A stretch of 64,000 bases of DNA from a bacterium (GCA_028716845.1 JAQUPF010000001.1:216167-280166); one strand, 5' to 3'. Shown: positions 6,779 to 58,902, counted from the first letter of the stretch. Numbers and translations are program-made. Notes: generated by a model from the letters alone, not told the origin.

Positions 6779-8299
6779 TCATCGCAGGCGGTAGAGGGCG
6801 TACGTGTGGCGGATCTCCGGGGATTCGTACAGGGCGATGCGCTCATGCCCGGCCAGGAAATCCGAGACCACGGCGTCGTATTCCCCGCCGATATCGGTGA
6901 ACGCGACGTAGCGGAGCCCCTCCCTTTCCCTGAGCCGGCGCATCCTGTCCACGGCCGCCCTCCCCGCGGCGCCGTCTTTCCCCAGCCTCCCCTTCCACCA
7001 GCCGTAGCGGCGGGAGTAGTAGAGCACCTCCGGCCCCCAGCAGTCCGTGAAGAGCAGCTCTCCCTCGGGCACGCTCCTTCCGACCGTCCCCAGGAAATGC
7101 CACAGGTGCCAGTTCACGGGGTAGAAGCGCGCGAGCACCTCCCCGGCGGCGGCGCGGAGGGAGAGGCCGACGACGAGGGCGATCACCGCCCCCCTGCAGA
7201 GCGCGGATCCGCGGAAACGCGGGATCAGTGAGACGCAGGCGTCGAGGCCGCGGGCGAACATGAGGGCGAGCGGCGGGACGAAGGCGAGGAAGTAGTACTC
7301 GTGGAGGACGACGAAGAACGGGTACGAGTCCACCGCCGCGTAGAGAAACGCGGCGGCGAGCCACGCGAGGAACAGGCGGGCCCCCGATCCCTTTTCGCGC
7401 ATGAGGCAGGCGACGCCGGCCGCCGCGAAGAGCACGCCGAGGGGCGACAGCGAACAGCGGCCGAGGAAGACGGCGAGCGCCCCGAAGAACCGCCGGTCGA
7501 CCCACTGCACGTAATAGGCCGGCGACGACCAGTTCCTGAACGTGGCCACGCCGGGCGCGAATGTCTTCGGCAACTGGCCCGCGTTGAGCACGTGCATGTG
7601 GTAGAGGAACCATGCGGCGACCGCGACCGCCACGATGCCGCCGAGCGCCCAGAGCCGCGGCGCCAGGAACCCCCTGGGGCCCCGCCTCCCCGTAAGGTAG
7701 ACGGCCATCGGGATCACCAGGTACGCGTTCGGCGGATTGACCGCGAGGGCGAGCGCGCCGGCCGCCGCGGCCCACGCCATGCTCCGGCGGTCGCCCCTGT
7801 CGACGAACTCGGTGAACCAGTACAGCATCCCGACGGCGAGGAACATCGAGAAGCCCCCCTGCCGCATGAAGCACCGGCTGTAGAAGACGAAGAGCGGGCA
7901 GAGCGAGAAGAGGAGCGCCGAGAGGAGGCTCAGGCGGGCGGGGAAGAACTTCCTCGACAGTTGGAAAAAGAGGATGACCGCCCACAGGGCGAAGAGGATG
8001 CCCACGATCCTCCCCCATATCTCATTCACCCCCGTGAGGTGATAGAAGAGGGCGACGATGTAGGAGTAGAGGGGGAATTCCGGCAGGTTGGTCGTGCCCC
8101 CCCTCCCTGAGACGGTCTTCGGCAGGAGGAGGGAGTTCCGCTCCACGTAGTAGAGCCAGGACTGCATCGCCGTGAGGGTCTGGCGGTATGAATGGTTGTC
8201 AAGGAGCGGGGCGCGGAGGTGGTAGAGCCGTGGCAGGAGGCCGGCGACGAGGACGCCGCAGAGGAGCCACTTCTCGACCGAGCGGGGGACCGTCACCAC
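6779..8299 (-). CDS. GT-C superfamily membrane glycosyltransferase (ArnT/PMT-like), paralog 1
   Basis: Track ORF 506 aa; many TM segments, size and topology like ArnT/protein-mannosyltransferase-type enzymes; first 37 aa identical to paralog at 13107..14636. Confidence 0.7.
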   Translation of the reverse strand: MVTVPRSVEKWLLCGVLVAGLLPRLYHLRAPLLDNHSYRQTLTAMQSWLYYVERNSLLLPKTVSGRGGTTNLPEFPLYSYIVALFYHLTGVNEIWGRIVGILFALWAVILFFQLSRKFFPARLSLLSALLFSLCPLFVFYSRCFMRQGGFSMFLAVGMLYWFTEFVDRGDRRSMAWAAAAGALALAVNPPNAYLVIPMAVYLTGRRGPRGFLAPRLWALGGIVAVAVAAWFLYHMHVLNAGQLPKTFAPGVATFRNWSSPAYYVQWVDRRFFGALAVFLGRCSLSPLGVLFAAAGVACLMREKGSGARLFLAWLAAAFLYAAVDSYPFFVVLHEYYFLAFVPPLALMFARGLDACVSLIPRFRGSALCRGAVIALVVGLSLRAAAGEVLARFYPVNWHLWHFLGTVGRSVPEGELLFTDCWGPEVLYYSRRYGWWKGRLGKDGAAGRAAVDRMRRLREREGLRYVAFTDIGGEYDAVVSDFLAGHERIALYESPEIRHTYALYRLR

Positions 8300-8333
8300 G
8301 ATTCCTTCCTGCGGAGATTGTCCCGCGGGACCG

Positions 8334-9269
8334 CTATGAGAACAGGCCTATCCTCTCCTCGACGATATACGGGGGCCTGTTCTTCCCCTGGATGAACATC
8401 CGCCCGAGGTACTCGCCGATGATCCCCATGCAGAAGAGCTGGACGCCGCCGAGCAGCGTGATGAGGGCGGCGAGCGTCGCCCACCCCAGCACGGGCACCC
8501 CGCTGGTGACCTTCTGCACCATCACGACGGCGAAGTAGAGGATGCTCAGGGCCGCGACGACGAGGCCGGCGACCGAAATGAGCTTCAGGGGCTTCACGGA
8601 GAAGGAGAGGAGGGAGTCGAGGGCGAAGCCGAGCTGGCGCGCGAACGGGTATTTCGTGGTCCCGCGCCCCCTCCTGCCGGAGGCGACCGGGACCCTGGAG
8701 GTCGGGAAGTTGATGAGCCCAATGATGAACGTGATGCTGGGGTCGCGCTCGGAGAAACGGAGCAGCTCGTCGATCGTCCGCCTGCTGATGATCCTGAAGA
8801 GACTGGTCGTGAATTCGATCCTGTGGTCCGAGAGCGCGGCGATGAGCCGGACGAACGCGCGGGAGCACAGATTACGGAACCAGGTCTCGTTCTTCCGCTC
8901 CTTGACGCCGTAGACGACGTCGTACCCCTTCCGCATCTCGGCGTGGAGGGCGGCTATGTCCTCGGGGCGGTCCTGGAGGTCCCCGTCCATGATCACCGCG
9001 GCCCGGCCCGCCGCCTCCCGGAGCCCCGCCAGTATCGCGGCGTGATGCCCGAACCGGTTGGAGAGCTTGAGCGCCTTGAACCGCCGGTCCCGCGCGACGA
9101 GCTCACGGAGGCGGGGCACGGTCTCGTCGCTGTTGATGTCGGTGACGAAGATCACCTCCCATTCGCCCGCGAGACCCTCCAGGGCGCGGGTGAGCCGCGC
9201 GGAGAGCTCGGGGATGTTCTCCGCCTCGTCCCGGACCGGGATCACCACCGAGAGCTCCGCCATGGTCAT
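8334..9269 (-). CDS. Polyprenyl-phosphate sugar glycosyltransferase, GT2 family (ArnC/DPM1-like)
   Basis: C-terminal 311 aa of track ORF 8334..9860; start MTMAELSVVIPVRDEAENI; DGDLQD motif; two C-terminal TM helices; ATGA overlap with upstream acetyltransferase stop. Confidence 0.8.
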   Translation of the reverse strand: MTMAELSVVIPVRDEAENIPELSARLTRALEGLAGEWEVIFVTDINSDETVPRLRELVARDRRFKALKLSNRFGHHAAILAGLREAAGRAAVIMDGDLQDRPEDIAALHAEMRKGYDVVYGVKERKNETWFRNLCSRAFVRLIAALSDHRIEFTTSLFRIISRRTIDELLRFSERDPSITFIIGLINFPTSRVPVASGRRGRGTTKYPFARQLGFALDSLLSFSVKPLKLISVAGLVVAALSILYFAVVMVQKVTSGVPVLGWATLAALITLLGGVQLFCMGIIGEYLGRMFIQGKNRPPYIVEERIGLFS

Positions 9270-9910
9270 CGCCCCTCCCGTCCGGCCGGCGCGCCGGCGC
9301 GCATCTCGCGCGCCGGGACACCCGCCACGACGACGTTGTCGGGGACGTCGCGCGTCACGACGGCCCCCGCCCCCACCGTCGCCCCTTCCCCGACGGTCCT
9401 CCCCGGGAGGATCGTCGCGTTCGCGCCGACGTAGGCGCGGCGCCCGACCCTCGCTCCCCCGAGCAGCACGGCGCGCGGCGCGACGGTGGCGAAGTCCCCG
9501 ATCGACACGTCGTGCATCACGGTCGCGCCGACGTTGATGCGGACGAACTCCCCGATGGTGACGTTGCACGAGATGAAGGCGCCGCTCTGGAGGAGCACCC
9601 CCCTGCCGAGCGAACAGCGCGGCGAGAGCGTCGCGCCGGGCGAGACGAGCTCCGCGAACGCGAAGCCGTGCGCCTCGTAGGCGCGAGAGAGGTGCTCCCG
9701 CGCGGCGGGCGAGTCGGGGGAGATGAACACCGGGACGCCGGGGAGGCGCTCTCGGATCGCGGGGGCGTCGTCGTCGGAGCCGAGGACGGGGCAGCCGAGG
9801 TAGTCGCCCCGGAGCGCCCCGTCGATGATCCCGACCACGCGCCTGCCGCAGCGCGCGCACAGCTCGACGATCTCGTGGAACCCTCCAACAAGTATGAGGT
9901 CAGTTCCCAC
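9266..9910 (-). CDS. Hexapeptide-repeat sugar N-acetyltransferase (PglD/NeuD-like)
   Basis: Track ORF; N-terminal Rossmann-like region followed by left-handed beta-helix repeats (VGATVMHDVSIGDFATVAPRAVLLGGARVG...). Confidence 0.7.
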   Translation of the reverse strand: MGTDLILVGGFHEIVELCARCGRRVVGIIDGALRGDYLGCPVLGSDDDAPAIRERLPGVPVFISPDSPAAREHLSRAYEAHGFAFAELVSPGATLSPRCSLGRGVLLQSGAFISCNVTIGEFVRINVGATVMHDVSIGDFATVAPRAVLLGGARVGRRAYVGANATILPGRTVGEGATVGAGAVVTRDVPDNVVVAGVPAREMRAGAPAGREGR

Positions 9911-11036
9911 GGAGCGCCTCCTTGAATGATCGGATCACGTGCTCCTGCGCCTCCCCGCCGAGCCCGGCGTAGAGCGGCAGGGTGATCTCGCAGTCTGCCG
10001 CGTACTCGGTCAGGGGGAGCTCCGCGGGGAGGTGGCGGTAGATCGAGAAGCGGTGCACCGCCGGGTAGTGGACGCTCGTCGCGATCCCGCGCGCCTTGAG
10101 GGTCTCGCGCACGCGGTCGCGCCGCTCGCGCGTCGAACCATCGAGCACCACCGGGAAGATGTAGTTCGAGACGTATCCCCCGTGCTCCCGGAAGGGGATG
10201 ATGAGCCCCTCCGTGCCGCCGAGGCCGTCAAGGTAGCGGCGCCGCACCGCGGCCCGGTCCTCGATGTCCTCCCGGAGCCGCCCGAGCTGCACGAGACCCA
10301 GGGCGGCCCTGATGTCGTCGAGGCGGTAGTTGTAGCCGAGGTCGACCACGTCGTACGAGGTGCGGTGCCCCATCGCCCGCTCGTACGAGAGGCTGGTCAT
10401 CCCGTGCGATCGCAGGAGGCGCGCCCGCTCGCAATACTCCCGGTTGCCGGTGACGAGCATCCCCCCCTCCCCGGTGCTGATGTTCTTGTTGGAGAAGAAG
10501 CTGAAGCAGCCGATGTCGCCGATGGTCCCGAGCGCCCGGCCGCCGCAGTCGGAGAGGGGGGCGTGGGAGGCGTCCTCGATGACGCCGAGGCGGCGCCGCC
10601 GGGCGATCTCCATGATCCGGCCCATCGCGCAGGGGAAGCCGGCGTAGTGCATGACCACCACCGCCCTCGTCCGCTCCGTGACGAGCCGCTCGAGACGGAC
10701 GGGATCGAGCGTGAGGTCATCCGTTCCTGCGATGTCGCAGAAGACCGGGACGGCGCCCACGTACCGGATCGCGTTCACCGTGGCGACGAAGGTGAGGGAG
10801 GGGGTGATGACCTCGTCCCCCTCGCCGAGGCCGAGGAGCCGGCACGCCATGTGCAGGGCGGCCGTGCAGTTCGTCACGCCGACGGCGTGGGGCGCGCCGA
10901 CCATGGCGGCGAACCGGCGCTCCAGCTCCTCGGTGACGGGACCGGTGGAGATCCACCTCGACCGGAGGACGCGCACGACGGCCTCCTCCTCCTCCGGTCC
11001 GTAATTCAGGTCGAAGAGCGGGATCGTGTAGCCCAT
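9900..11036 (-). CDS. DegT/DnrJ/EryC1/StrS-family nucleotide-sugar aminotransferase
   Basis: Track ORF 378 aa; PLP-enzyme signature FSFFSNKNISTGEGGMLVT and overall DegT-like architecture. Confidence 0.85.
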   Translation of the reverse strand: MGYTIPLFDLNYGPEEEEAVVRVLRSRWISTGPVTEELERRFAAMVGAPHAVGVTNCTAALHMACRLLGLGEGDEVITPSLTFVATVNAIRYVGAVPVFCDIAGTDDLTLDPVRLERLVTERTRAVVVMHYAGFPCAMGRIMEIARRRRLGVIEDASHAPLSDCGGRALGTIGDIGCFSFFSNKNISTGEGGMLVTGNREYCERARLLRSHGMTSLSYERAMGHRTSYDVVDLGYNYRLDDIRAALGLVQLGRLREDIEDRAAVRRRYLDGLGGTEGLIIPFREHGGYVSNYIFPVVLDGSTRERRDRVRETLKARGIATSVHYPAVHRFSIYRHLPAELPLTEYAADCEITLPLYAGLGGEAQEHVIRSFKEALRGN

Positions 11037-11058: not shown

Positions 11059-12042
11059 TCAAACCTCGTACCGGTCGGGACGGTACCGATGTCGGTTCTC
11101 CCTGATCCAGTCGATCGTCTCGCGGAGCCCGGCCTCGAGATCGTAGCGCGGCTCCCACCCGGTCGCCGCCTTCAGCCGGCGGTTGTCGGCCCTGAGCCGT
11201 TCCACCTCCCCCTCCTCCGGCCGCACCCGCGCCGGGGCGAGGACGATCCGCGCCTCCGCCCCCATGAGACGGGCGATCATGCGGGCGAGGTCCCCGACGG
11301 AGATCTCCTCGTCCATCCCGATGTGGACCGCCTCGCCGATAAAGCCGGGCGCGTCATGCGCCGCCAGGAAGCCGTCCACGGTGTCCCGCACGAACGTCAG
11401 GTCCCTCGTCGGCGCGAGGTTCCCCAGCCGGATCTCCCGCGCCCCCGCGAGGAGCTGGATGATGATCGAGGGGATCACGGCGCGCGCCGACTGCCGCGGC
11501 CCGTACGTGTTGAACGGCCGGACGATCTTCACCGGCAGGCCGAACGATCGGTGATAGCTCAGGGCGAGCTGGTCCGCGGCGACCTTGGTGGCGGCGTACG
11601 GCGAACGGGCGTCCGGCGGCTGCCCCTCTCCGATCGGGACCGTCCGGACGTTCCCGTACGTCTCGCTGGTCGAGGTCACGAGCACCTCCCCCGTCCCGCA
11701 CTCGAGGGCCGCCTGCAGGACGTTGTAGGTCCCCTCGACGTTCGTCCGCACGTAGGCCAGCGGCGAGACGTACGAGTACGGGATCCCGATGAGCGCGGCG
11801 AGGTGGAACACGGCGCCGCAGCCGCGCGCCGCCCGCAGCACGGCGTCGTAGTCGCGGATGTCGCCCGCGACCACCTCCAGTTCATTCCGGCAGGGGACGT
11901 CGTCGAGCCAGCCCCACGAGCCGCCGCCGACGTACCGCACGAAGGCGCGGACGCGCATCCCCATCGCCACGCACCGCTCCACGAGGTGCGAGCCGATGAA
12001 GCCCCCGGCCCCCGTGATGAGGACCATCCCGTCGGCGCTCAT
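11059..12042 (-). CDS. NAD-dependent nucleotide-sugar epimerase/dehydratase (SDR family)
   Basis: Track ORF; TGAGGFIGSHL Rossmann motif and Y-x3-K (SPYAATKVAADQL). Confidence 0.8.
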   Translation of the reverse strand: MSADGMVLITGAGGFIGSHLVERCVAMGMRVRAFVRYVGGGSWGWLDDVPCRNELEVVAGDIRDYDAVLRAARGCGAVFHLAALIGIPYSYVSPLAYVRTNVEGTYNVLQAALECGTGEVLVTSTSETYGNVRTVPIGEGQPPDARSPYAATKVAADQLALSYHRSFGLPVKIVRPFNTYGPRQSARAVIPSIIIQLLAGAREIRLGNLAPTRDLTFVRDTVDGFLAAHDAPGFIGEAVHIGMDEEISVGDLARMIARLMGAEARIVLAPARVRPEEGEVERLRADNRRLKAATGWEPRYDLEAGLRETIDWIRENRHRYRPDRYEV

Positions 12043-12737
12043 GGCTCCTCGAAGTGCGTCTTCACGATCTCGTGCGCCCTCTCGTAGTCGCTGACCCGTC
12101 CGATGTCAAGCCAGTACTCCGCGAGCTCGTACTTCATGACGGGCATCTCCCGCTCGAGCATGGTCCTGATCAGCGCGTCCATGCCGAAGTAGGTCCCGTC
12201 CGGGATGAGATCGAGTATGCCGGGCTTCATGACGTAGATGCCCGCGATGATCCAGGTGATGATCTCCGGCTTCTCCTGGATCCCCGTCACGCGGTCCCCG
12301 GAGAAGAAGATGTTGCCGAAGGCGAACGGGAGAATCTCCTTCTTGATGGCGATGGTGAGGAGCGAGTCCGCGGAGAGGCCGAACGCGTACAGCTTCCCGA
12401 AATCGGCCAGGGTGAGGATGTCGCCGTTCATCAGGATGAACGGCTCTGCGAGGCGGTCCCGGAGGAGCGAGAGAGGCCCCGCCGTCCCCAGCGGGACATC
12501 CTCCCTGCTCACGCTGAGCCTGACCCCGTACCGCGAGCCGTCCCCGAAGAACTTCTCGATGTAGTCGGACTTGTAGTTGGTGGTGAGGATGATCTCATCG
12601 AACCCGAATTTCCTGAGGCGATCGATCTGAATCTCGAGGACCGATTTCTCCCCCACCGGAAGGAGGGGCTTGGGGATGACCGAGGTGAACGGTTTGAGGC
12701 GCGTGCCGAGGCCCCCCGCGAGAATGATCGCCTTCAT
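12039..12737 (-). CDS. Sugar-phosphate nucleotidyltransferase
   Basis: C-terminal 232 aa of track ORF 12039..13049; start MKAIILAGGLGTRLKPFT (G-x-G-T-R-L motif); GGAGGGGAG RBS before ATG 12737; 4-bp overlap with epimerase start. Confidence 0.75.
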   Translation of the reverse strand: MKAIILAGGLGTRLKPFTSVIPKPLLPVGEKSVLEIQIDRLRKFGFDEIILTTNYKSDYIEKFFGDGSRYGVRLSVSREDVPLGTAGPLSLLRDRLAEPFILMNGDILTLADFGKLYAFGLSADSLLTIAIKKEILPFAFGNIFFSGDRVTGIQEKPEIITWIIAGIYVMKPGILDLIPDGTYFGMDALIRTMLEREMPVMKYELAEYWLDIGRVSDYERAHEIVKTHFEEP

Positions 12738-12750: not shown

Positions 12751-12808
12751 CCGTGGCAGATTATATCGTGCCGGCTCCCGCGGAGGCGAGCGGAAATCCG
12801 CCCGCGGC
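12751..12808 (-). promoter_or_regulatory. Conserved promoter/operator-like element, copy 1 (imperfect palindrome + 15 nt + TATAAT)
   Basis: Blocks CCGTGGCAGATTATAT and GGAGGCGAGCGGAAATCCGCCCGCGGC shared with 14719..14776; on the coding (minus) strand a TATAAT hexamer lies about 20 nt upstream of the nucleotidyltransferase ATG. Confidence 0.35.
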
Positions 12809-12822
12809 ACGGGGCCGCCCGA

Positions 12823-13083
12823 TCACTTGAGGAGGAGGAGCCGGACATCCCTGACGCCGAGCTCGTCCCCGGAGCAGGGAAGTTTGCCGGCGAATCCCTC
12901 CGGCACCTTTCTCCTGGTGTCCCGAGTGGCGGAGATGTCCTTCTTCGGGAATGGCGAGGACTCGACCAGTTCCACGATCCCGCGTATGCCGAGACGGTTG
13001 ATGGCCGGGCTGTGGCAGATGGCGTCCACCTCCCGCCTCGCCACCTCATCCTCCGGGCCTTTGGACTTCAGCATGTCTTCCAT
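12823..13083 (-). CDS. 86-aa stand-alone paralog of the C-terminal domain of the methyltransferase at 17803..18978
   Basis: Track ORF; MEDMLKSKGPEDEV...NRLGIRGIVELVESSPFPKKDISATRDT...LLLLK aligns with the last about 86 aa of the 452-aa ORF (roughly 60% identical by eye). Confidence 0.4.
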   Translation of the reverse strand: MEDMLKSKGPEDEVARREVDAICHSPAINRLGIRGIVELVESSPFPKKDISATRDTRRKVPEGFAGKLPCSGDELGVRDVRLLLLK

Positions 13084-13106
13084 TTCCGCATCGGTGAGGA
13101 ACGGCG

Positions 13107-14636
13107 TCAGCGCTCCTTCAACCTGTACAGGGCGTAGTAGATTACGGGCTGCTCGTTCGTTTCCAGCCGGTGGAGCAGCTCGTGCGACGCGAGGTAGTCC
13201 GCTATCAGATTGTCGTAGGGGTAACCCGCGTGGGCCACCATGACGTACCCCAGCCCTTTCGCCGCGCGCAATTCCTCCATCTGCCGCACGACCTCCCCGC
13301 CCCTCGCGTCATCGAGATCGCCCCTGTACCGCCACCAGCCGTACCGGTAGGTGTAGTAGAGGGCCTCCGGCCCCGAGCAAGCCGTGTAGACGAGGGCGTC
13401 CTCGGGAATGCGATCTCTCGCTTCCATCACGAAGGCGTAGAGATTCCAATTGACGCGGTAGAAGACAGGGCGGGTGTCCCTCCAGGCGGGAAGGAAGAAC
13501 AGGCAGGAGAAGGCGCCCAGGACGGCGAGGCGAAACCACCGGACGCCCCGGAACCGCGGCGACAGCGAACAGCACCGATAGACGCCCAGGGCCGCGCAGA
13601 ACGCCAGCGGGGGGGCAAAAACAAGGTAGTAATACTCGTGGGGGCAGATGAAGAACGGATAGCTGTCCAGGACCGCGTCGATGCATGCCGCGGCGAGCCA
13701 TGCGAGGAACAGGCGCGAACCCGCGCTCCTGTCCCGCAGGAGAAACAGAAGCCCCCCGGCAGCGAAGAACACACCCCACGCCGAGAGCATGTAATCGGAG
13801 ATGTGCCGATGGAGGCTGCGGAAGAACGCCGGGTCGATCCACTGGGTGTAGTACGCGAGGGAGGACCAGTCCCGCATCTTCGAGTCCCGCATGAAAAAGG
13901 TGTGGGAGAGAACCCCGCCGCTCAGATAGTGCGCCTGGTAGCACATCCACGCCGCGCTCAGGCAGGCCACGATCGCTCCCAGCACCCAGAGTCGCCACTG
14001 CTTCAATGCGCTCCTCCCGTCCCGGCGGAACAGGTAGCATCCCATGGGGAGGAAGACATAGCCGCTGGGCGGGTGCACGGTGATGCCGAGCGTCGCGGCG
14101 GCGGCGGCCAGCAGCATGCTCTTCGTGGAACGCGTGTCCACGAACTCGACGAAGTAGTAGAGCATCGCGACCGTGAGGAAGGTCGACATCCCTCCCTGCC
14201 GGGTGAAGCTCCGGCTGTAGAAAATGAAAAGGGGGCACAGGGCGAACAGGAGGGAGGCGAAGAGGGAGAGGTCCTCGTCGAAGAACCTCCTCGTCAGACG
14301 GTAGAACCAGAACACGGCGGCAAGGGAGAAGACGATGCTGACGACCCTCCCCCAGATCTCGTCGAATCCGAAGGCCCGGTAGAGGAGGGCCACGAGGTAA
14401 CTGTAGATCGGGAACTCCGGCAGATCGGAGACGCCGCTTCTCCCGGCCATGGTCTTGGGATGGAAGAGGGACGTGCCCTCCCTATAGTAAATGGAGGACT
14501 GCATGGCGGTGAGCGTCTGCCGGAAGGAGTGGTTGTCGAGAAGCGGGGCGCGGAGGTGGTAGAGCCGTGGCAGGAGGCCGGCGACGAGGACGCCGCAGAG
14601 GAGCCACTTCTCGATCGAGCGGGGGAGCGTCACCAC
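13107..14636 (-). CDS. GT-C superfamily membrane glycosyltransferase (ArnT/PMT-like), paralog 2
   Basis: Track ORF 509 aa; same architecture as 6779..8299 with a near-identical 5' end. Confidence 0.7.
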   Translation of the reverse strand: MVTLPRSIEKWLLCGVLVAGLLPRLYHLRAPLLDNHSFRQTLTAMQSSIYYREGTSLFHPKTMAGRSGVSDLPEFPIYSYLVALLYRAFGFDEIWGRVVSIVFSLAAVFWFYRLTRRFFDEDLSLFASLLFALCPLFIFYSRSFTRQGGMSTFLTVAMLYYFVEFVDTRSTKSMLLAAAAATLGITVHPPSGYVFLPMGCYLFRRDGRSALKQWRLWVLGAIVACLSAAWMCYQAHYLSGGVLSHTFFMRDSKMRDWSSLAYYTQWIDPAFFRSLHRHISDYMLSAWGVFFAAGGLLFLLRDRSAGSRLFLAWLAAACIDAVLDSYPFFICPHEYYYLVFAPPLAFCAALGVYRCCSLSPRFRGVRWFRLAVLGAFSCLFFLPAWRDTRPVFYRVNWNLYAFVMEARDRIPEDALVYTACSGPEALYYTYRYGWWRYRGDLDDARGGEVVRQMEELRAAKGLGYVMVAHAGYPYDNLIADYLASHELLHRLETNEQPVIYYALYRLKER

Positions 14637-14703
14637 GATTCCTTCCCGCCCCGGCTTCCCCGCTGCTCGGTCATGAGAATCGGCCTCTCACCGTTGTGGG
14701 GGC

Positions 14704-16107
14704 TTAGTCCTCCCCGGCCCGTGGCAGATTATATATTGCAGGTTTCGAAGGAGGCGAGCGGAAATCCGCCCGCGGCGCCTTCCCGGGGGTTCCCGCGATC
14801 AGCATGAGGAAGCAGCACATCGGGAGCATCCAGACGACGCGCGCGCCGTATCGGTCATCCACGATGGAGAGCGAACTGCAGACGGCGTCGTTCGCCGCGA
14901 CGGCGCAGAGCGAGAAGAGAAGCAGGAAGACGAAGCGGCGGTCGCGGCGGATGCGGGGCAGCCGCATCCCCGCGCCGAGCGCCGCGAGCGAGGCGCACAG
15001 AGCCGCGGCGTGGACGGCGCCGAGGCGGCCGAGGCCGAGCGTTCCCCGCTGCTGCCTCGACCCGGCAAAGGCCTCGAAGCCGCGGGGGTATCTCCTGCGC
15101 AGCACCTTGTAGGCCCACTGGTCCGGCCGTATCGGCGACGTCGCGGCCAAGGCGTTGAACCGGCCGAACTGCCTGAAGGAATCCTTCGCGCAATCGGCCG
15201 CCCACGCGCGCGGGTAGGCCCGGATCGTCGCCCACGCCAGGCGCCTGTACTCGTCGTGGGACGCGTTCCACCCCCCGCCGAGCTGAAAGGGGCTGCGCGG
15301 GTCCCACAGGAAGTAGCCGGCGGGCCCGCGGATCTCTCCCCTTTCCCGGCATAGCTCGTACTCCTCCTCGCCGCAGTGCTCGTCGAGGAACCGCCGCAGC
15401 ATCCCCTTCTCCCAGAGGCGGGCGGTCATGAAGATATGCGAGGACCGCAGCGGTGAGAATCCCGCCCCGAGGCGCCAGTTGAGCGCGGAGAGGAAGACGC
15501 ACGAGGCGCCGACGAGGCACGCGGCGAGCGCGATGCGCCGCGCGGATGTCAGGGGGGCGACCCGCGACGCGAGACACGCGAGACACGCCGCCGCCACGAG
15601 GACCGCGCCGATGAGAAGGTGCGAGGCGTGCGCCGCCGCGGAGAAGACGAACAGCGCCGCGCATGCCGCGGTCGCCGCTCCGCGACGCCCGCCCGGCAGC
15701 AGGAGGAGGAGCAGGCAGAGCATGAAGACGGGAGTGAGCGCGTCTGCGAAGACGGTGCTCTGGACGAGTGGGGCGGTCGTCAGGAGGCCCAGGACCGCGC
15801 AGAGCGCGACCGTCATGGCGTCGTGGCGACGCGCCGTCAGCCGGCAGACGAGCGCGCGGAGCAGGCAGGCAAGGATGCACGCCTGCGCGAGCACCACGGG
15901 CCACAGCGACCGCCCGAGGCCCGCGGCCCTGATGAAGATGCTGTAGCCGATGGTGCGGTCAGGAGGAACGCGGAGCGTGAACGAGCTCTCGACGTAGGTG
16001 CCGGTGTCGGTATACACGAGAGGGTATCCGTTAAAAAATGCCGGCCACGAGAGCAGGAGCGTCCCGAGCAGCACCGAAAGAATGACCTGAACCCGGGGTC
16101 GGATCAC
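14704..16107 (-). CDS. Polytopic integral membrane protein, function unknown (possible glycosyltransferase)
   Basis: Track ORF 467 aa; GTG start preceded by AAGGAG; many hydrophobic segments; last about 25 codons are encoded by the conserved element at 14719..14776. Confidence 0.55.
   Translation of the reverse strand: MIRPRVQVILSVLLGTLLLSWPAFFNGYPLVYTDTGTYVESSFTLRVPPDRTIGYSIFIRAAGLGRSLWPVVLAQACILACLLRALVCRLTARRHDAMTVALCAVLGLLTTAPLVQSTVFADALTPVFMLCLLLLLLPGGRRGAATAACAALFVFSAAAHASHLLIGAVLVAAACLACLASRVAPLTSARRIALAACLVGASCVFLSALNWRLGAGFSPLRSSHIFMTARLWEKGMLRRFLDEHCGEEEYELCRERGEIRGPAGYFLWDPRSPFQLGGGWNASHDEYRRLAWATIRAYPRAWAADCAKDSFRQFGRFNALAATSPIRPDQWAYKVLRRRYPRGFEAFAGSRQQRGTLGLGRLGAVHAAALCASLAALGAGMRLPRIRRDRRFVFLLLFSLCAVAANDAVCSSLSIVDDRYGARVVWMLPMCCFLMLIAGTPGKAPRADFRSPPSKPAIYNLPRAGED
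14719..14776 (-). promoter_or_regulatory. Conserved promoter/operator-like element, copy 2
   Basis: Same two conserved blocks as 12751..12808 with a different 15-nt spacer; about 80 nt upstream of the PMT-like paralog 2 start, overlapping the 3' end of ORF 14704..16107. Confidence 0.35.
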
Positions 16108-16181
16108 GATATCTCCTTGCGGGACAATATATTACACCATTTCCCTTGAAGTATGCGCGTCTTATTGCGCCGTATAGAACA

Positions 16182-16198
16182 ATCGTGGTCCGACCCCA
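16182..16198. repeat. 17-bp motif TGGGGTCGGACCACGAT, copy 2 (inverted)
   Basis: Exact reverse complement of 5606..5622; lies in the AT-rich 107-nt gap upstream of ORF 14704..16107. Confidence 0.6.
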
Positions 16199-16214
16199 CC
16201 ATCCTGGTTGCACG

Positions 16215-17783
16215 CTATGGGGGGGACCCCGGACAATCACCGCGGAGTCGGAAGAGGCGGTACTCGCCGACGCGCTTCTCCCCATACCGCTCCGCGAGAT
16301 GGGCGAGCAGTTCATCGTCGGCGAGATCCCGGCCTGATGTCCCCGTCGCGTAGAGGACGATGCGCCGGCCCCCCGCTTCGGCGAGCGCACGGTCGAAATC
16401 CTCGCGCGTCCGGACGTTGCGGATCAAGTCCCGGTCGGCGTAGTACCTGAATTCCGGCCTCCCATAGAACGATATGACGGTTGTCTCGTCGGGGGCGGTC
16501 ATTGACCCGATGATCCCGCCGAGGCGGTGGCCGTCGTGGAACCGGAGCGCGGCGCGCTCCCGCTCCAGCCCGCGCAGCCCCGAGGCGCCGTGGAGGACGA
16601 GAACTGCCGCGATGAAGAGGGCGCCGAGCGGCCGTGAGAGCCGTGAGAGCGGTTCATACAGCCGCGCCGCCCCGACCGCGGCGAGCAGGGCGAATGACGG
16701 CGTCACGTTGAACAGGACGTACGTGTGGATGTAGGCGGCGTTCGTGAAGACGGCCGGGTGGAGCCAGCCGAGGACGAGGAGATTCAAGGCGACGACCCGC
16801 GCCTCCCGGCTGCCGCCCCGGCGGGCGAAGAGGACGGCGGCGCCGATCCCCGCGAGGATGATGGCCGGCCAGCCGAGGAGTGTCTCGAGGTACGACCGGA
16901 GGCGCAGGGCGTACTCCCGCATCGTGAACGCGTAGGCGGGGGGGGCGCCGATGTTCAAACGGAACAGGAGCGTCTTCATCCAGGCGCCGCCGAACACGCT
17001 CCCGGTCACGGACCTGACCGCCAGGAGAAAGAGGGCGATTCCCGCCGCCCCCGCCGCCAGGTAGTACCTGAGAACCGGGCGCTCTTTTCGATCAGGCCGT
17101 GGACGGGCGATCTCCTCCACCGCGATAAGAACGAGCGCGTAGTAGCCCGTCCATTCCGTCGCGATCGCGAGTACGAAGGCGATCACGCTCAGCGCCGGGA
17201 GGCGCCGCTGCGGCGCGGCCCGCCATGACCGGTAGGAGGCGTATGACATGAGGATGAAGAAGAGGACCATGGAGCCGAAGACCTCGACCTGGGGGCCGTA
17301 GAACAGGTCCATGGTCATGAACGCCGCGAAGCAGACGCCGAGGAGGGCGGCGCCGGGCCCGAGGACCGGCCGCAGGATGAGAAAGAGCAGCATGAGATTC
17401 CCGGCAGAAAAGAGGATGGGGATGGCCCTCGCGGCGGCCTCCGACTCCCCGAGGATTGCGAAGACGCCCGCCGTCACCACGGGGAGGAGCGGCGGATGGT
17501 GGAGGTAGAATGATCGTGGGGGGGCGTGGCCCCCGGCGTCACGAGCCATCACGAAGCGCGTCGCCCGGAAGCCGTAGCGGAGGTGGTTCCGGGCGACATG
17601 GCTGTAGACCGCGCCGTTCCAGCCGTGGTGGCCGCCCGCCCATCTGTCAGTGAGCCCCCAGCAGCGGAGGGCGATGCCCGCCGCGACGATGGCGAGGCAG
17701 AGCGCAACCGGTCCGGATACGGCCCGTTTCACGGCCTTACATCCTGCAGCGCGTGCTCCGCGCACACTGTCCCTCCCCGACAA
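16215..17783 (-). CDS. GT-C-like polytopic membrane glycosyltransferase (ArnT/PMT_2-type topology)
   Basis: Track ORF 522 aa; N-terminal multi-TM domain followed by a soluble C-terminal domain, the layout of GT-C enzymes; no close motif match verified. Confidence 0.55.
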   Translation of the reverse strand: MSGRDSVRGARAAGCKAVKRAVSGPVALCLAIVAAGIALRCWGLTDRWAGGHHGWNGAVYSHVARNHLRYGFRATRFVMARDAGGHAPPRSFYLHHPPLLPVVTAGVFAILGESEAAARAIPILFSAGNLMLLFLILRPVLGPGAALLGVCFAAFMTMDLFYGPQVEVFGSMVLFFILMSYASYRSWRAAPQRRLPALSVIAFVLAIATEWTGYYALVLIAVEEIARPRPDRKERPVLRYYLAAGAAGIALFLLAVRSVTGSVFGGAWMKTLLFRLNIGAPPAYAFTMREYALRLRSYLETLLGWPAIILAGIGAAVLFARRGGSREARVVALNLLVLGWLHPAVFTNAAYIHTYVLFNVTPSFALLAAVGAARLYEPLSRLSRPLGALFIAAVLVLHGASGLRGLERERAALRFHDGHRLGGIIGSMTAPDETTVISFYGRPEFRYYADRDLIRNVRTREDFDRALAEAGGRRIVLYATGTSGRDLADDELLAHLAERYGEKRVGEYRLFRLRGDCPGSPP

Positions 17784-17802: not shown

Positions 17803-18978
17803 TCACTTCACGAGGAGCAACTCGACGTCCCTGATGCTGAGATCATCTTCCGAATAGGGGAGCTTCCCCCTGAATTCCTCCGGCACCTCTCTCTTGGTAT
17901 CGCGCGTAAAGGATATGTCCTTCCTCCTGAAGGGCGAGGCCTCGACAATCTGCACGATCTCGCGTATCCCGAGGCGGTTGATGATCGTGCTGCGGTAGAT
18001 GAATTCCACCGCCCGCCTCACCACTTCATCCTCAAGCCCCTTGGACCTCAGCAGGTTCTCCATCTCGGCCTCGGAGTAACGCAGGTGGCCGAAAGGCGGG
18101 ATGTGCGGTGTCGCGCCGTGCCGATCCGTCACGTGGTAATGGTGCCCCACGGCGCTGCTCCAGATGGGGCCGAACGAGGCGTAGAGCCGCCCGCCAGGCT
18201 TCAACACCCGGTGGATCTCGGAGAGGACCCGCCCGAGATCGAGGCAGTGCTCAAAGACGTTGAACGAATACGCCCCGTCGAAGGTATCGTCGTCGAACCC
18301 GAGCGACGAGGCGTCCATCATGACGTACGAATACCGCCGGTGCATGGAGAGGTAGCACTTCGAGAAGTAGTCAATGTCGATGCCGACGATCCTCCTCGGC
18401 CCCGCTCGCAGCAGCTGCCACGCGACGGCGCCGTTCCCGCTGCCGATCTCCAGGATCGTCCTCCCGCGAACCGTCATCCTCCCCGTCAGATCGCGGACGA
18501 ATCGCGCGTTGTACGGCTTGCCGATGAAGTCGTCGTACTCCCCGATGATGTCCGGGAACACCGGCGGGGAGAGCAATCCCCTCCCCGCGAGCCATGCCCT
18601 TGCCCTCTGGAACACACCCGGCGTGATCCGCACCCCCTTCGCGACAAGCGGCCGTGGATTCAATCTGTGCAGATCGGTCCTTCTGAACAGCGTCATTTCC
18701 ATGTCATAGACGCCGGGCGCGATCGTGAAGCTCTTGATGACCTCCACGGGCACGCCGGGCCTCCACGTGTCCGTCCGCGGCCGAATGACGAAGCCGATAT
18801 ACGCGTGCCGTTTCCCGGCAGGGCGGGCACCCGGCGGTTGACCGTTCGCGCGGACAAGCTTGATGCCGAGGGAATATTCACCATCGATCGGCCGCGACGG
18901 GAGAAATTTCAGGCGGATCAGCGCATGCCTTCCGAGGAAGGATACCCGCAGGCCGATGAGTTCGACCGGATCGCTCAT
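17803..18978 (-). CDS. Class I SAM-dependent methyltransferase with extra N- and C-terminal domains
   Basis: Track ORF 17803..19161; ATG at 18978 (MSDPVELIG); motif I LEIGSGNGAVA and LKPGGRLY; C-terminal 86 aa duplicated at 12823..13083. Confidence 0.7.
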   Translation of the reverse strand: MSDPVELIGLRVSFLGRHALIRLKFLPSRPIDGEYSLGIKLVRANGQPPGARPAGKRHAYIGFVIRPRTDTWRPGVPVEVIKSFTIAPGVYDMEMTLFRRTDLHRLNPRPLVAKGVRITPGVFQRARAWLAGRGLLSPPVFPDIIGEYDDFIGKPYNARFVRDLTGRMTVRGRTILEIGSGNGAVAWQLLRAGPRRIVGIDIDYFSKCYLSMHRRYSYVMMDASSLGFDDDTFDGAYSFNVFEHCLDLGRVLSEIHRVLKPGGRLYASFGPIWSSAVGHHYHVTDRHGATPHIPPFGHLRYSEAEMENLLRSKGLEDEVVRRAVEFIYRSTIINRLGIREIVQIVEASPFRRKDISFTRDTKREVPEEFRGKLPYSEDDLSIRDVELLLVK

Positions 18979-19180
18979 CGCCCTGTTCTTCCGCGCGGAA
19001 GTGGAAACGGTTCGATGGTTTGCATCGCTGCGATGGCAATCGCCCCTGCGACGGTGATGGACCTTTCCCCGCAGGAAGCCGGTGTATTCATGATCACGGG
19101 AGAGGCGGCGGCGGTTCCTGTTGGACAGGCGCGGGCTTGTATCTATTGAACCGCACTGCATACGCGATTCGACGCCAAAC

Positions 19181-21226
19181 TCATGGCTTCTTCTCCTGCG
19201 GGAGGAAATCGTGACGGGAGCCCAGCCGGAGGTTGACCAGTGGGTTGACCGCCTCCCAGCGGGGCCCCGGGCGGGGGCGGCGCGCGCCGCCGTAGAGGGA
19301 GGGGTGGTTGCGCTTCATGATCTCCATGAGCTCCGCGTGGCGCTCGATCGCGCGCGCGTCGCGCGTGACGCCGTGCCGGCGGTAGTGGAAGAGCGGCGCG
19401 GGGATGACCTCGCCCCTCCCCCCCGCCTCCGCGACGGAGAGCCAGAAATCCCAGTCCTCGTTGCCGCCCGCCATGTTCGGGTTGAAGCCGCCCACCCGCC
19501 GCCAGATCTCCTTCGTGAAGACCGCCGCCGTCGGGACGCAGTTCCGCCGCGTGAGCGTCCCGATCTCGAACGGCTCCGTCCCCCATTCGCGATCCTCGTC
19601 GCCGAATATCTTCACCCAGGAGTAGCTGATGTCGAGCCGCCGCGCCTCCATGGCGGCGACGCACTTCTTGAGGTAGGCCGGCATGATGCGGTCGTCGGCG
19701 TCGAGGCAGCAGATGTATTTTCCCCACGCCGCGGCGATCGCGTTGTTCCGCGCCCTGCTCACGCCCTGGTTCTCCTGCCGGCGGACCATCAGGTTCGGGA
19801 TGCCGCGGCGCTCGATCTCCGCGAGCTTCTCCACCGTGAACGGGTCGTCGGAGCCGTCGTCGACGATGATGATCTCGATGTTCCGCAGCGTCTGGCCGAG
19901 GGCGCTCTCGAGCGCCTCGTCCAGGAAACGGCCGTAGTTGTGGCAGGGGATGACGACGGTGACGAGCGGCGCCTCCCACGGCTCCAGCCGGAAGAGGCGC
20001 GGGAGGCCGGTGCCGAAGAGCCGCCGGGCCGCGTTCACAACCGGGATGGGGAGCCGCCGCTTCACACGGTCGGGGGCGAGCCGCGCCGCGAGGCGGTACG
20101 GGAACCGGTACAGACCCCGCCGCAGCAGATCCCCCTCCGGGACGAGGAGCAGCCGCCGGGCGACGCGCTTGAAGCGGCGCGGACAGAGGACGTCGATCAC
20201 GCGGAACGGGAGGAGGACGAGCCCCTTCAGCGAGTGGCGCGCGGCGCAGATTGCGCAGGCGAGCGGCCAGGGCCTCGACGACTTGATGCCGCGGAGCTCG
20301 TCCGAGGCGAGGTTGAGCCGGTGCTGCGCGTCGCCGAGCCGGCGCTCGAGCGTGGCGCGTTCCCTCTCGGCCTCCCGCGAGCGTGCCTCGAGGCCGGCGA
20401 CCCGCCGCTCGAGGTCCTCGATCCGGCGCTTCGCCGCCTCGTGGTGGCCGGTCAGCCGCCGCAGCGACTCCTCCCCCGTCTTCCAGTAGTGGCGATACCG
20501 CGCGATGAGGTCGTCCTTGGCGATGAGGACCTCCGGGAAGCGGCGCCGGTAGCTCTCGAGGTGCTTCTCGATGATCCTCCGCCGGAGCCGGCTCGACACC
20601 TCGGGCCTGTCCGCCCCGCGGACCATCGAGTCCTTCCGCACGCGGTACCGGAAGAGGAACTCCGGGATGAGGGCGACCCTGTAGCCCGCCTCGAGGACGC
20701 CGATCCAGAAGTCCCAGTCCTCGTACCCCGGCAGCGTCTCGTCGTAGCCCCCGGCCTTCTCCCACGCCTCCCGCCTGAACGGCGAGGAGCCGCACGCCCT
20801 GTTGGTGACGAGGAAGTCCGCCAGTTCCGTCCCCCGATCCCGCTCCTCCGCCTCCTTCTCGCCGAAGATCCGGTACCAGAACGTCGCCACGCCGACCTCG
20901 GGGCGGGAATCGAGGAGCGCCGCGCACCTCCCGAGGCAGTCCGGCTCGAGGATGTCGTCGGCGTCGAGGCAGCAGATGTACCCGCCGCCCGAGTTCCCGA
21001 TGCCGAGGTTCCGCGCGGCGGAGAGTCCCCGGTTGGGCGAGCGGATGACGCGCGTCTTCGGCCACGGGCAGGCCGAGAGGAGGCGCCCGGTGTCCCCGTC
21101 GGTCGAGCCGTCGTCCACGACGACGATCTCGAAGTCCCGCATCGTCTGCGCGAGGACGGAGTCCACCGCCTCGCCCAGGTACCGGCCGAGGTTGAAGCAG
21201 GGGATGATCACGCTGACTTTCGGCAT
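19181..21226 (-). CDS. Tandem two-domain GT2 glycosyltransferase with coiled-coil linker
   Basis: Track ORF 681 aa; two GT2 cores (VSVIIPCFNLGRYL...DADD and VTVVIPCHNYGRFL...DADD) separated by a Glu/Arg-rich heptad-like segment (EDLERRVAGLEARSREAERERATLERRL). Confidence 0.8.
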   Translation of the reverse strand: MPKVSVIIPCFNLGRYLGEAVDSVLAQTMRDFEIVVVDDGSTDGDTGRLLSACPWPKTRVIRSPNRGLSAARNLGIGNSGGGYICCLDADDILEPDCLGRCAALLDSRPEVGVATFWYRIFGEKEAEERDRGTELADFLVTNRACGSSPFRREAWEKAGGYDETLPGYEDWDFWIGVLEAGYRVALIPEFLFRYRVRKDSMVRGADRPEVSSRLRRRIIEKHLESYRRRFPEVLIAKDDLIARYRHYWKTGEESLRRLTGHHEAAKRRIEDLERRVAGLEARSREAERERATLERRLGDAQHRLNLASDELRGIKSSRPWPLACAICAARHSLKGLVLLPFRVIDVLCPRRFKRVARRLLLVPEGDLLRRGLYRFPYRLAARLAPDRVKRRLPIPVVNAARRLFGTGLPRLFRLEPWEAPLVTVVIPCHNYGRFLDEALESALGQTLRNIEIIIVDDGSDDPFTVEKLAEIERRGIPNLMVRRQENQGVSRARNNAIAAAWGKYICCLDADDRIMPAYLKKCVAAMEARRLDISYSWVKIFGDEDREWGTEPFEIGTLTRRNCVPTAAVFTKEIWRRVGGFNPNMAGGNEDWDFWLSVAEAGGRGEVIPAPLFHYRRHGVTRDARAIERHAELMEIMKRNHPSLYGGARRPRPGPRWEAVNPLVNLRLGSRHDFLPQEKKP

Positions 21227-21290
21227 CTCTCTTTCAGCTCGTCGTTCGTACTTCGTACATCGTACATCGCAAACAGAGGTTAATCCACAC
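21098..21290. repeat. About 190-bp duplicated segment spanning GT2 5' coding end, RBS and upstream hairpin, copy 1
   Basis: Near-identical to 22161..22353 (a few mismatches over about 190 bp, constant offset 1063). Confidence 0.7.
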
Positions 21291-21305
21291 AGTACGATGT
21301 ACGAA

Positions 21306-22289
21306 TCAGCGCCGGAACGGCAATGAAAAGACCGACTTCACCGCGCGCCACGCCCGCTGGACGGCGGAGCCGACCTTCCAGGCCTTGGAGGCGTACACCG
21401 ACCGGAGTTCGTGCTCGCGCTCATCGAGCAGGCGGCGGAGCTCGCCGGGCTCGCCCCTGTTCAGCGCGGTCTCCAGCTCCCGTATGTAGCGGTGCGCGTC
21501 GTCGTGGTGCCCCAGCAGCCAATCGAGCTCCTCCTCCCGGTGCCGCCAGTAGAGGCGGTACTCGCCGAGCAGCCGGTCCTTGCCGCGGATGACCTCGAGG
21601 GCGTGCTCCCGGAACGACGCGGCGTGCCTGGCGATGATCCGGTCCATGATCTCGCCCCGGTACTCGGGGCTGTTGCTCCGGTGGTGCTTCCCCCCCTCCC
21701 TGATCCTGTACCGGAAGAGGAACTCCTCCAGGACGTGCGCGCGGTACCCCCGCTCGAGGATGCCGATCCAGAAGTCCCAGTCCTCGTACCCCGGCAGCGT
21801 CTCGTCGTATCCCCCCACCTCCTCCCACGCCTTCCGCCTGAACAGCGAGGCGGTGCAGGCGCGGTTGTCGACGAGGAAATCGGCGAGCGTCGCGGAGTCC
21901 GGGTCGACCGTGCCGGGCTTGTCGCCGAAGAAGGTGTACCAGAACGTCACGATCCCCACGCCCGGGTCTCCGTTCATGACGGCGCCCGTCTTCTCGAGGC
22001 ACGCCGGCTCGAGGAGGTCGTCCGGGTCGAGGCAGCAGACGTACTCGCCGGAGGACAGCGAGATGCCGTGGTTCCTCGCCGCCCCCGCCCGCTTCCGCTC
22101 CGTGGCGACGACCCTCGTCTTCGGCCGCCGGTAGTCCGCGAGGAGGGCGTTGGTCTCCTCGTCGGTCGAGCCGGGATTCACGACGATGATCTCGAAGTCC
22201 CGCATCGTCTGCGCGAGGACGGAGCCCACCGCCTCGTCCAGGTACCGGCCGAGGTTGAAGCAGGGGATGATCACGCTGACTTTGGGCAT
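21306..22289 (-). CDS. GT2 family glycosyltransferase, paralog of the N-terminal domain of 19181..21226
   Basis: Track ORF 21306..22358; ATG at 22289 gives MPKVSVIIPCFNLGRYLDEAV..., nearly identical over the first about 60 aa to the downstream tandem GT2. Confidence 0.8.
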   Translation of the reverse strand: MPKVSVIIPCFNLGRYLDEAVGSVLAQTMRDFEIIVVNPGSTDEETNALLADYRRPKTRVVATERKRAGAARNHGISLSSGEYVCCLDPDDLLEPACLEKTGAVMNGDPGVGIVTFWYTFFGDKPGTVDPDSATLADFLVDNRACTASLFRRKAWEEVGGYDETLPGYEDWDFWIGILERGYRAHVLEEFLFRYRIREGGKHHRSNSPEYRGEIMDRIIARHAASFREHALEVIRGKDRLLGEYRLYWRHREEELDWLLGHHDDAHRYIRELETALNRGEPGELRRLLDEREHELRSVYASKAWKVGSAVQRAWRAVKSVFSLPFRR

Positions 22290-22353
22290 CTCTCTTTCAG
22301 CTCGTCGTTCGTACTTCGTACATCGTACATCGCAAACAGAGGTTAATCCACAC
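22161..22353. repeat. About 190-bp duplicated segment, copy 2
   Basis: See 21098..21290. Confidence 0.7.
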
Positions 22354-22403
22354 CGCACCCAGAACGAAGTACGAAGTACGATGTACGATGTACGAAGTAC
22401 GAA
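22308..22403 (-). promoter_or_regulatory. Perfect 25-bp inverted repeat (GTAC-rich) with 46-nt loop in the leader of the GT2 gene
   Basis: Arm TTCGTACTTCGTACATCGTACATCG (22308..22332) is the exact reverse complement of 22379..22403; a shorter 14-bp version precedes the next GT2 gene (about 21253..21305). Confidence 0.5.
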
Positions 22404-42490: not shown

Positions 42491-42502
42491 CGGCGGGGGC
42501 GG

Positions 42503-58883: not shown

Positions 58884-58902
58884 CGGGCGCTGGAGCGGAA
58901 CG

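Follow-up and report, generated by a model that had tools for sequence, protein, structure and literature searches.

Two copies of one 58-nt sequence lie within a glycan gene cluster of an uncultured bacterium, each upstream of a gene of that cluster, and the question they raise is what such a sequence does there, if it does anything. The DNA considered here is a 64,000-nt stretch (GCA_028716845.1 JAQUPF010000001.1:216167-280166; hereafter the window, with positions counted from its first letter), and the sequence, which we call the module, reads GCCGCGGGCGGATTTCCGCTCGCCTCC-N15-ATATAATCTGCCACGG on the minus (coding) strand at 12808→12751 (copy 1) and 14776→14719 (copy 2). Judging from the sequence, we lean modestly toward a duplicated, probably factor-dependent, sigma-70-type internal promoter of the cluster, in which an operator with dyad symmetry would take over the function of the -35 element. 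The mechanism is conventional and the module a real but fairly ordinary kind of feature, found at this single locus and nowhere beyond it.

The module consists of a 27-nt block A and a 16-nt block B on either side of a 15-nt spacer. The blocks are identical between the copies (27/27 and 16/16, or 43/43 together), and the 8 differences among the 58 nt fall without exception (8/8) within the spacer, which is equally long in both copies and matches at 7 of 15 positions (47%). By our own count, the chance of finding 8 differences inside some 15-nt stretch of 58 nt is ~1.5e-4; a program gave ~2e-5, a figure that assumes 9 differences. On the minus strand, copy 1 reads GCCGCGGGCGGATTTCCGCTCGCCTCC-GCGGGAGCCGGCACG-ATATAATCTGCCACGG and copy 2 reads GCCGCGGGCGGATTTCCGCTCGCCTCC-TTCGAAACCTGCAAT-ATATAATCTGCCACGG; on the plus strand, the short block appears as CCGTGGCAGATTATAT (12751-12766 and 14719-14734) and the long block as GGAGGCGAGCGGAAATCCGCCCGCGGC (12782-12808 and 14750-14776). 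Block A holds a 20-bp imperfect dyad, GCGGGCGGA-TT-TCCGCTCGC on the minus strand, with eight Watson-Crick pairs and one G-T pair. The parts of the two copies are as follows.

12751..12808, minus strand: module copy 1, 58 nt, in the 86-nt gap from the stop of a methyltransferase relic open reading frame (ORF; 12823) to the nucleotidyltransferase ATG (12737); repeat family D7
12782..12808, minus strand: block A of copy 1, GCCGCGGGCGGATTTCCGCTCGCCTCC, with the dyad at 12786-12805
12767..12781, minus strand: spacer of copy 1, 15 nt, GCGGGAGCCGGCACG, 7/15 identical to that of copy 2
12751..12766, minus strand: block B of copy 1, ATATAATCTGCCACGG, with TATAAT at 12760-12765 and a putative start at the A at 12754
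14719..14776, minus strand: module copy 2, 58 nt, 82 nt upstream of the GTG of PMT509 (a PMT_2 glycosyltransferase gene) and overlapping the non-conserved 3' tail of a 467-aa membrane-protein ORF
14750..14776, minus strand: block A of copy 2, with the dyad at 14754-14773
14735..14749, minus strand: spacer of copy 2, 15 nt, TTCGAAACCTGCAAT
14719..14734, minus strand: block B of copy 2, with TATAAT at 14728-14733 and a putative start at the A at 14722

With up to 3 mismatches allowed, each block occurs just twice in the window; in dinucleotide shuffles of the window at the same threshold, 0.00 and 0.07 matches were expected for the two blocks and no shuffle reached two. The flanks of copy 1 and copy 2 are not homologous.

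An earlier note made from the sequence alone had described the two copies with both blocks, a 9-bp imperfect inverted repeat about TT and a perfect TATAAT in each, and all of this proved exact. It had also called the spacers unrelated, which is not borne out by their 7/15 identity. Its distance of about 80 nt before the second PMT-like paralog agrees with the 82 nt between the end of copy 2 and the GTG at 14636 (91 nt from TATAAT). The distance of about 20 nt that it gave before the nucleotidyltransferase is 13 nt from the module end and 22 nt from the end of TATAAT to the ATG at 12737, with the Shine-Dalgarno sequence GGAGGGGAG in between.

Promoter-Like Features of Block B

The window contains 10 copies of the hexamer TATAAT where 0.87 would be expected, an approximately ten-fold enrichment in a genome of 65-70% GC, and no shuffle reached 10. 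Six of the 10 sit 12-91 nt upstream of start codons in sense orientation, namely before rlmN (28851), greA (31424), a POR gene (42065), and a HEAT-repeat gene (47039) and in module copies 1 and 2; of the remaining four, one is at a gene end and three are in an AT-rich intergenic island between divergent genes. The layout of copy 1, a -10 hexamer followed by ~15 nt, a Shine-Dalgarno sequence and an ATG, is that of the greA, rlmN, HEAT-repeat and POR promoters. Both modules occupy larger gaps (two of several) in an otherwise tightly packed minus-strand cluster.

Other promoters of this genome have an extended -10 (TGn) and/or a TTGAC-like -35 element (e.g., GTGACG-17-tgcTATAAT at 47067 and TTGACC-17-TAATAT at 34436). 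TGn is absent from the module, where the bases preceding TATAAT are CGA in one copy and ATA in the other, and a two-hexamer promoter scan found nothing between 8000 and 22000, and so nothing at either module. Block B would supply a perfect -10 element and the start-site region. From the usual distance of 6-7 nt past a -10 hexamer, we infer transcription from the A at 12754 or 14722, about 6-7 nt downstream. A start in copy 1 would give a 17-nt leader carrying the Shine-Dalgarno sequence for the nucleotidyltransferase and nucleotide-sugar genes, and a start in copy 2 an 86-nt leader for the PMT_2 glycosyltransferase.

Two related loci (L011 and L012, ~50% protein identity) differ from ours in gene order, the PMT_2 gene being inverted and divergent from the epimerase and nucleotidyltransferase genes. 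Because these units are divergently transcribed, they must have promoters of their own in the relatives, and separate promoters for the same two units here are therefore unsurprising. The module itself was not found in L011 or L012.

Block A as a Putative Operator

At class II activator promoters, such as those served by CRP and FNR, the activator site is centered at -41.5. Counted from an assumed start at the A six nt past the hexamer (12754/14722), the dyad center of the module falls at -41.5; with the following base as the assumed start, it falls at -42.5. The module resembles these promoters in its good -10, the lack of a usable -35, a dyad of ~20 bp and the fixed distance from site to -10; it differs from them in that the dyad fits neither TGTGA-N6-TCACA nor TTGAT-N4-ATCAA, its half-sites abut a 2-nt center, and no cognate regulator gene was found, with no CRP/FNR-type gene among the window ORFs scanned. 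In a factor-dependent promoter of this kind, the dyad (GCGGGCGGA-TT-TCCGCTCGC) may stand in for the missing -35 and extended -10, its center at about -41.5 to -42.5 marking the site of a dimeric class II activator or of a repressor that blocks the -35 region. One putative DNA-binding protein would co-regulate both transcription units, and the 15-nt spacer would set distance only, its sequence being free to drift.

A literature search with the dyad core returned mostly primers, and the sole relevant match was the Rhizobium meliloti DctD site, TGTGCGgaaatCCGCACA (PMC11077940); DctD also activates exopolysaccharide clusters in Vibrio vulnificus (PMC11077940). The central 12 nt of the module dyad, GCGGAAATCCGC, are identical to those of the published site (PMC11077940), which raises the alternative that block A is an upstream activator sequence for a sigma-54 enhancer-binding protein. 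The window does encode a GAF-sigma54-HTH_8 activator (56704-58212) and has a good -24/-12 promoter (TGGCAC-N5-ATGC) at 58515, so that sigma-54 machinery exists in this organism. Around the module, by contrast, no TGGCAC-N5-TTGC-like site with up to 2 mismatches occurs between 12000 and 15000, there is no downstream -24/-12 element, the DctD site has outer TGT/ACA bases that are missing from the dyad, and copy 1 lies just 13 nt from an ATG. Sites of the NtrC/DctD family lie 80-150 nt from a sigma-54 promoter, whereas the module dyad lies ~20 nt from TATAAT. We consider this alternative highly improbable.

Two further promoter candidates were rejected. The plus-strand TGGCAG-ATTAT-AT, taken as a sigma-54 promoter, has no GC at -12, where it is essential, and is directed away from the genes (antisense), and for a promoter of the extracytoplasmic function (ECF) type we could read no conserved second element on either strand.

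The sigma-54-activator gene itself (56704-58212, minus strand) is divergent from an island of 55% GC (58212-58585) in which three TATAAT hexamers accompany a near-consensus sigma-54 promoter (TGGCACataatATGC, at 58515). The island precedes a gene for a secreted protein with a subtilase (Peptidase_S8) domain (58585-62106, plus strand), whose N-terminus, by our own reading, looks like a ComEA-type helix-hairpin-helix.

The Glycan Cluster and Probable Constraint on the Two Blocks

Frame analysis based on GC content at third codon positions (GC3), together with Pfam, delimits a co-directional glycan cluster of ~21 kb on the minus strand. It opens with a GT1 gene and several GT2 genes and continues in the order below, with module copy 2 between X467 and PMT509 and copy 1 between the 86-aa ORF and the nucleotidyltransferase.

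17803-19161, minus strand: methyltransferase MT452
16215-17783, minus strand: PMT_2 gene, 522 aa
14704..16107, minus strand: X467, a 467-aa multi-pass membrane protein with no Pfam family, whose last 24 codons (stop excluded) read through module copy 2
13107..14636, minus strand: PMT509, PMT_2 glycosyltransferase (Pfam), 509 aa, GTG start, downstream of copy 2
12823..13083, minus strand: 86-aa ORF, a relic copy of a methyltransferase C-terminus; family D1
12039..12737, minus strand: nucleotidyltransferase (NTP_transferase; Pfam, GC3 frame), ATG at 12737, Shine-Dalgarno GGAGGGGAG, first gene of the nucleotide-sugar block after copy 1
11059-12042, minus strand: dehydratase/epimerase
9900-11036, minus strand: DegT aminotransferase
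8334-9860, minus strand: GT2 gene of the nucleotide-sugar block
6779-8299, minus strand: PMT506, the third PMT_2 gene

The DnaX protein of the host is closest to Chlamydiota-labeled proteins (55-56% identity), followed by those of Verrucomicrobia, Kiritimatiellia and Omnitrophota (40-43%), and on these similarities we place this uncultured bacterium in the Planctomycetes-Verrucomicrobia-Chlamydiae (PVC) superphylum.

Several parts of the cluster are duplicates of one another and provide a measure against which the module can be set. PMT509 and PMT506 share 67% nt and 54% aa identity, with a third-position identity of 0.50 against 0.41 by chance, and their similarity takes in 53 nt upstream of the start codon, which in the PMT506 paralog are the end of the GT2 gene. 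The 86-aa ORF matches the C-terminal 86 residues of MT452 at 75% nt and 65% aa identity (third positions 0.67-0.70, chance 0.41), and this homology extends ~13 nt beyond the stop codon, ending 1-2 nt from block A of copy 1. Neighboring paralogous DNA is 50-79% identical, vs. 47% for the spacer and 100% for the blocks, and at a per-site identity of 67-79% the probability of 43/43 matches is 3e-8 to 4e-5. Because silent sites of the neighboring duplicates are only 50-70% identical while the blocks match at all 43 positions, both blocks appear to be constrained. A single gene-conversion tract would have homogenized the spacer as well. On the sequence comparison, purifying selection on both blocks and on spacer length, with spacer sequence exempt, is the simplest reading. 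A factor site with a -10 element would leave this pattern of conserved blocks around a drifting spacer of fixed length.

The gene order is exactly what one tandem duplication of the block [MT ... PMT506] and three subsequent deletions would produce. More than one duplication event is possible, since the paralog pairs differ in silent-site identity (~0.50 vs. 0.67-0.70). An explanation without function is that the 58 nt were copied in the segmental duplication or by later local copying, the spacer was replaced in a single event (a small template switch or indel repair), and neither block is under selection. The locus is indeed patched together from duplicates (PMT509/PMT506, the methyltransferase relic and MT452, the GT2 repeats), the relic homology ends at block A, the copy 1 spacer is complementary in part to the flank upstream of it, the outcome expected of a template switch, and the module is absent from the relatives and from all public scans. 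Such a leftover, however, requires a recent copy and a precise 15-for-15 nt exchange that left 7 matches; it makes a coincidence of finding TATAAT 22 nt before an ATG and a Shine-Dalgarno sequence between the two; and it sits badly with the 43/43 identity, which is very improbable if the copy is as old as the neighboring paralogs. We regard a non-functional leftover as unlikely.

The 86-aa ORF is a stand-alone open frame with a GC3 of 0.85. Since its codon positions 1 and 2 are better conserved than position 3, this frame could be either a relic of recent origin or a small protein with a function. The leader of PMT509 (14637-14689, compared with 8300-8352) keeps the last 18 nt of the lost GT2 gene and the paralog's intergenic Shine-Dalgarno sequence; in it, a newly created ATG opens a 14-codon upstream ORF (14630-14674), the TGA of which overlaps the GTG GTG start of PMT509.

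Transcript-Level Alternatives

The dyad can also be read as RNA. On the sense strand it folds into a hairpin of -15.5 kcal/mol (z = -2.97), compared with -12.1 kcal/mol for the opposite strand, and the 93-nt region of copy 1 has a folding z of -2.65. A polycistronic transcript might accordingly carry the module as an RNA element, the block A hairpin protecting the upstream 3' end and the A/U-rich AUAUAAUCU of block B serving as an RNase E/Y-type cleavage site, such that the glycan transcript is split into segments of different stability. In keeping with this, the one non-Watson-Crick position of the hairpin is a G-U, which pairs on the sense strand only, differing flank and spacer bases lengthen the stem in both copies, an A/U-rich block is rare in a genome of 65-70% GC, and read-through transcription is likely because all cluster genes are co-directional with short gaps. 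Processing, however, needs A/U-richness only, yet both copies have the exact TATAAT that this genome places before start codons; the 141-nt region of copy 2 shows no excess folding (z = +0.54), the identical copies allow no covariation, and Rfam yielded neither a match at or close to the module nor, at gathering score, one anywhere in the window. We judge an RNA-processing role rather unlikely.

Intercistronic hairpin or RNase E processing modules are familiar from the stabilizers of the papBA and puf operons and from repetitive extragenic palindromic (REP)-type hairpins. Like the papBA/puf-type modules, ours places a GC-rich hairpin without a T tract between co-directional genes and follows it with an A/U-rich stretch; it differs from them and from the REP-type elements in having just two copies and, as its A/U stretch, an exact TATAAT spaced from a start codon as in a promoter. 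Measured against REP and miniature-element criteria within the 64 kb, the module shows two copies, an imperfect terminal repeat and no flank duplication.

An intrinsic (Rho-independent) terminator was considered and rejected. The genome does use canonical terminators, such as the 12-bp stem followed by TTGCTTTCC at 31834-31807, whereas the module hairpin has no T tract (its tails are CTCCGCGG and CTCCTTCG), which makes termination unlikely; the terminator scan was silent at both copies.

Copies as Possible Recombination Sites

The two copies are direct repeats that bracket exactly one glycosyltransferase gene and the relic, and block A has 9-bp arms about a 2-nt core. A dyad with a 2-nt center could be the crossover site of a serine-type recombinase, or the module could be a miniature element with imperfect terminal inverted repeats (CCGCGGGCGGATT ... 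AATCTGCCACGG), and excision or loss of the 1,968-bp PMT509 cassette would then yield glycan variation. By our reading of the sequence, the module ends are ~11/13 complementary. Dispersed intergenic mosaic repeats abound in this genome, and their units (CRCGGAT, CCGCGGA-GA-TCCGCGG) are similar to parts of both blocks. Against this stand the lack of any recombinase or transposase gene among the scanned ORFs of the window, the lack of a target-site duplication, the restriction to two copies, which are 2 kb apart in a window whose other 62 kb have none, and the variable interior, which is atypical of miniature mobile elements. The exact nucleotidyltransferase protein was found on one 3-kb Logan contig only, from the source sample, where the module is identical and the junction unrearranged; an exact-product look-up of the NCBI protein gave no match. 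A recombination or mobile site is improbable. Nor do the copies form a phase-variable promoter region, being direct and not inverted, with no recombinase domain in the scanned window ORFs.

Conserved non-coding elements before polysaccharide operons are known from JUMPStart/ops with RfaH and from the invertible promoters of Bacteroides capsule loci. The module shares with both the reuse of a short conserved non-coding sequence at more than one surface-glycan transcription unit. It differs from JUMPStart/ops in that it has no GGCGGTAG ops motif and no NusG paralog was seen in the window, and from the Bacteroides promoters in that its copies are direct and flank genes instead of a promoter, with no invertase seen in the window.

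The region upstream of the epimerase is conserved between L011 (13340-13386) and L012 (8655-8706) as GGCAACTTTG...GTAGTACCCTGTTCGCATG, and in L011 it holds GGCGGTAG, the 8-nt core of enterobacterial ops/JUMPStart, which may be there by chance.

The mosaic repeats lie at 31482-31681, 38490-38650, 42122-42499, 47081-47381, 47918-48168, 49560-49797, and 62605-62930, share stretches of 90-180 nt at 92-99% identity between sites, and occur in both orientations. Their sub-motifs include CRCGGAT arrays with a period of ~10 nt (e.g., CCACGGATTGGCACGGATCC), TTCAAAGTT/AACTTTGAAC, CACAGAGAACGCAGAGGA, and ATACAACCGGCCACAG, the last in four exact copies; neither Rfam families nor tRNA genes matched them. 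A faint likeness to the mosaic-repeat unit CRCGGAT, possibly coincidental, is seen in parts of blocks A and B.

Searches Beyond the Two Copies and Evidence Against a Promoter

Several findings weigh against a factor-dependent promoter. No third copy exists in the window at up to 8/27 mismatches for block A, 4/16 for block B, or 5 for the dyad. In a collection of 185,579 species genomes (source species apparently not included), the 20-mer dyad gave 9 single matches in unrelated phyla, none of them (0/9) with block B beside the dyad, so that no module is present there, and the strict module pattern had 0 matches in metagenomes. Pfam scans of the window ORFs revealed no transcription-factor gene in or adjoining the cluster. 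The available -35 candidates (TCGCCT, CGCCTC, GCCTCC) match TTGACA at no more than 2 of 6 positions, a plain promoter model leaves the conserved 9 nt past the -10 hexamer (CTGCCACGG) unaccounted for, and the dyad would also form its stable RNA hairpin (-15.5 kcal/mol) in a polycistronic message. Just two copies are known, and hence neither covariation nor motif statistics are possible.

Copy 2, moreover, lies within the annotated 3' end of a coding sequence. The X467 frame, which GC3 identifies as the true one, passes through copy 2 to a TAA at 14704, and the NCBI annotation (PHN82_01135) agrees. Homologs of X467, however, stop shortly past the last conserved helix and have unrelated tails, and GC3 collapses from ~14790, for which reasons the overlap looks like read-through of non-coding DNA. 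Conservation as a peptide was rejected as well: both copies are in frame with their upstream ORFs (PRADFRSPP...YNLPR), yet copy 1 follows a stop codon and the homolog tails lack the peptide.

The looser pattern GCGGA-N2-TCCGC has one additional site in the window, at 49710, inside an unrelated dispersed repeat, and several of the nine genome-collection matches to the dyad are in an apparently coding context reading A-G-G-F-P-L. In metagenomes, GCGGATTTCCGC-N20-28-TATAAT matched more than 120 times with extended similarity at chance level; the best of these (L023) is a promoter-like region of an organism with 75% GC, before an unrelated gene.

The earlier note had proposed internal promoters made of a -10 element and a protein-binding site. 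Its promoter half is well supported, if only indirectly, by the use of TATAAT in the window (10 vs. 0.87), the layout of copy 1 and the divergent genes of the relatives. Its binding half is plausible only: the dyad at a class II position, the lack of a -35 or TGn, and the 100% identity of the blocks speak for it, and the failure to find a factor or a third copy speaks against it. The note had also named an outcome that would undo its proposal, the element being simply part of a longer duplicated coding segment and conserved nowhere else. Half of this is the case, in that the locus is a patchwork of duplicates and the module was seen nowhere else. The other half is not, given the non-homologous flanks and a conservation far above that of adjacent duplicates, which do not fit a piece of one longer coding duplicate.

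If the modest lean toward a duplicated, factor-dependent promoter is right, the module would offer a likely regulated promoter architecture, a -10 alone plus a dyad near -41.5, for a lineage without cultured members or promoter data. It would also provide a defined 20-bp sequence as bait to capture the regulator of a surface-glycan locus, and it would illustrate how, within one genome and without related ones, paralogous copies can reveal selection on cis-regulatory blocks. It opens no new class of mechanism. A more ambitious version, which we find quite doubtful, would make the dyad the operator of a lineage-specific (PVC-superphylum) regulator that couples nucleotide-sugar synthesis to the PMT_2 glycosyltransferase, with the 27-nt direct repeats also permitting reversible loss of the PMT509 cassette and the module acting as both a regulated promoter and a recombination handle for glycan variation.

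Other Features of the Cluster and Window

No tRNA genes were found by a scan of the window. X467 has 86 homologs (E up to 1e-5), and those in the relatives (L011 10001-11341 and L012 5449-6810) lie in a similar glycan cluster adjoining GT2/Capsule_synth and PMT_2 genes; X467 is a candidate uncharacterized component of glycan assembly. Upstream of the X467 gene, the 108-nt gap at 16108-16214 (minus strand) contains a 35-nt imperfect inverted repeat (16095-16129 / 16163-16197) and a -10-like element, gtgTAATAT, 20 nt before the GTG start, likely a further internal promoter of the cluster. The GT2 domains at 19181-22358 are arranged in tandem with a spacing of 1,063 nt and 75-89% identity, and a short repeat, TCGTACTTCGTACATCGTACATCG, occurs in direct and inverted copies between and at the starts of these genes (21239-21269, 22302-22332, and 22372-22402). 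Near the start of the window, an ECF-type sigma factor with regions 2 and 4 only (1200-1763, plus strand) is followed by a protein (1857-2777, plus strand) with a weak Metal_resist-type match below the Pfam cut-off, and the two are a possible sigma/anti-sigma pair.

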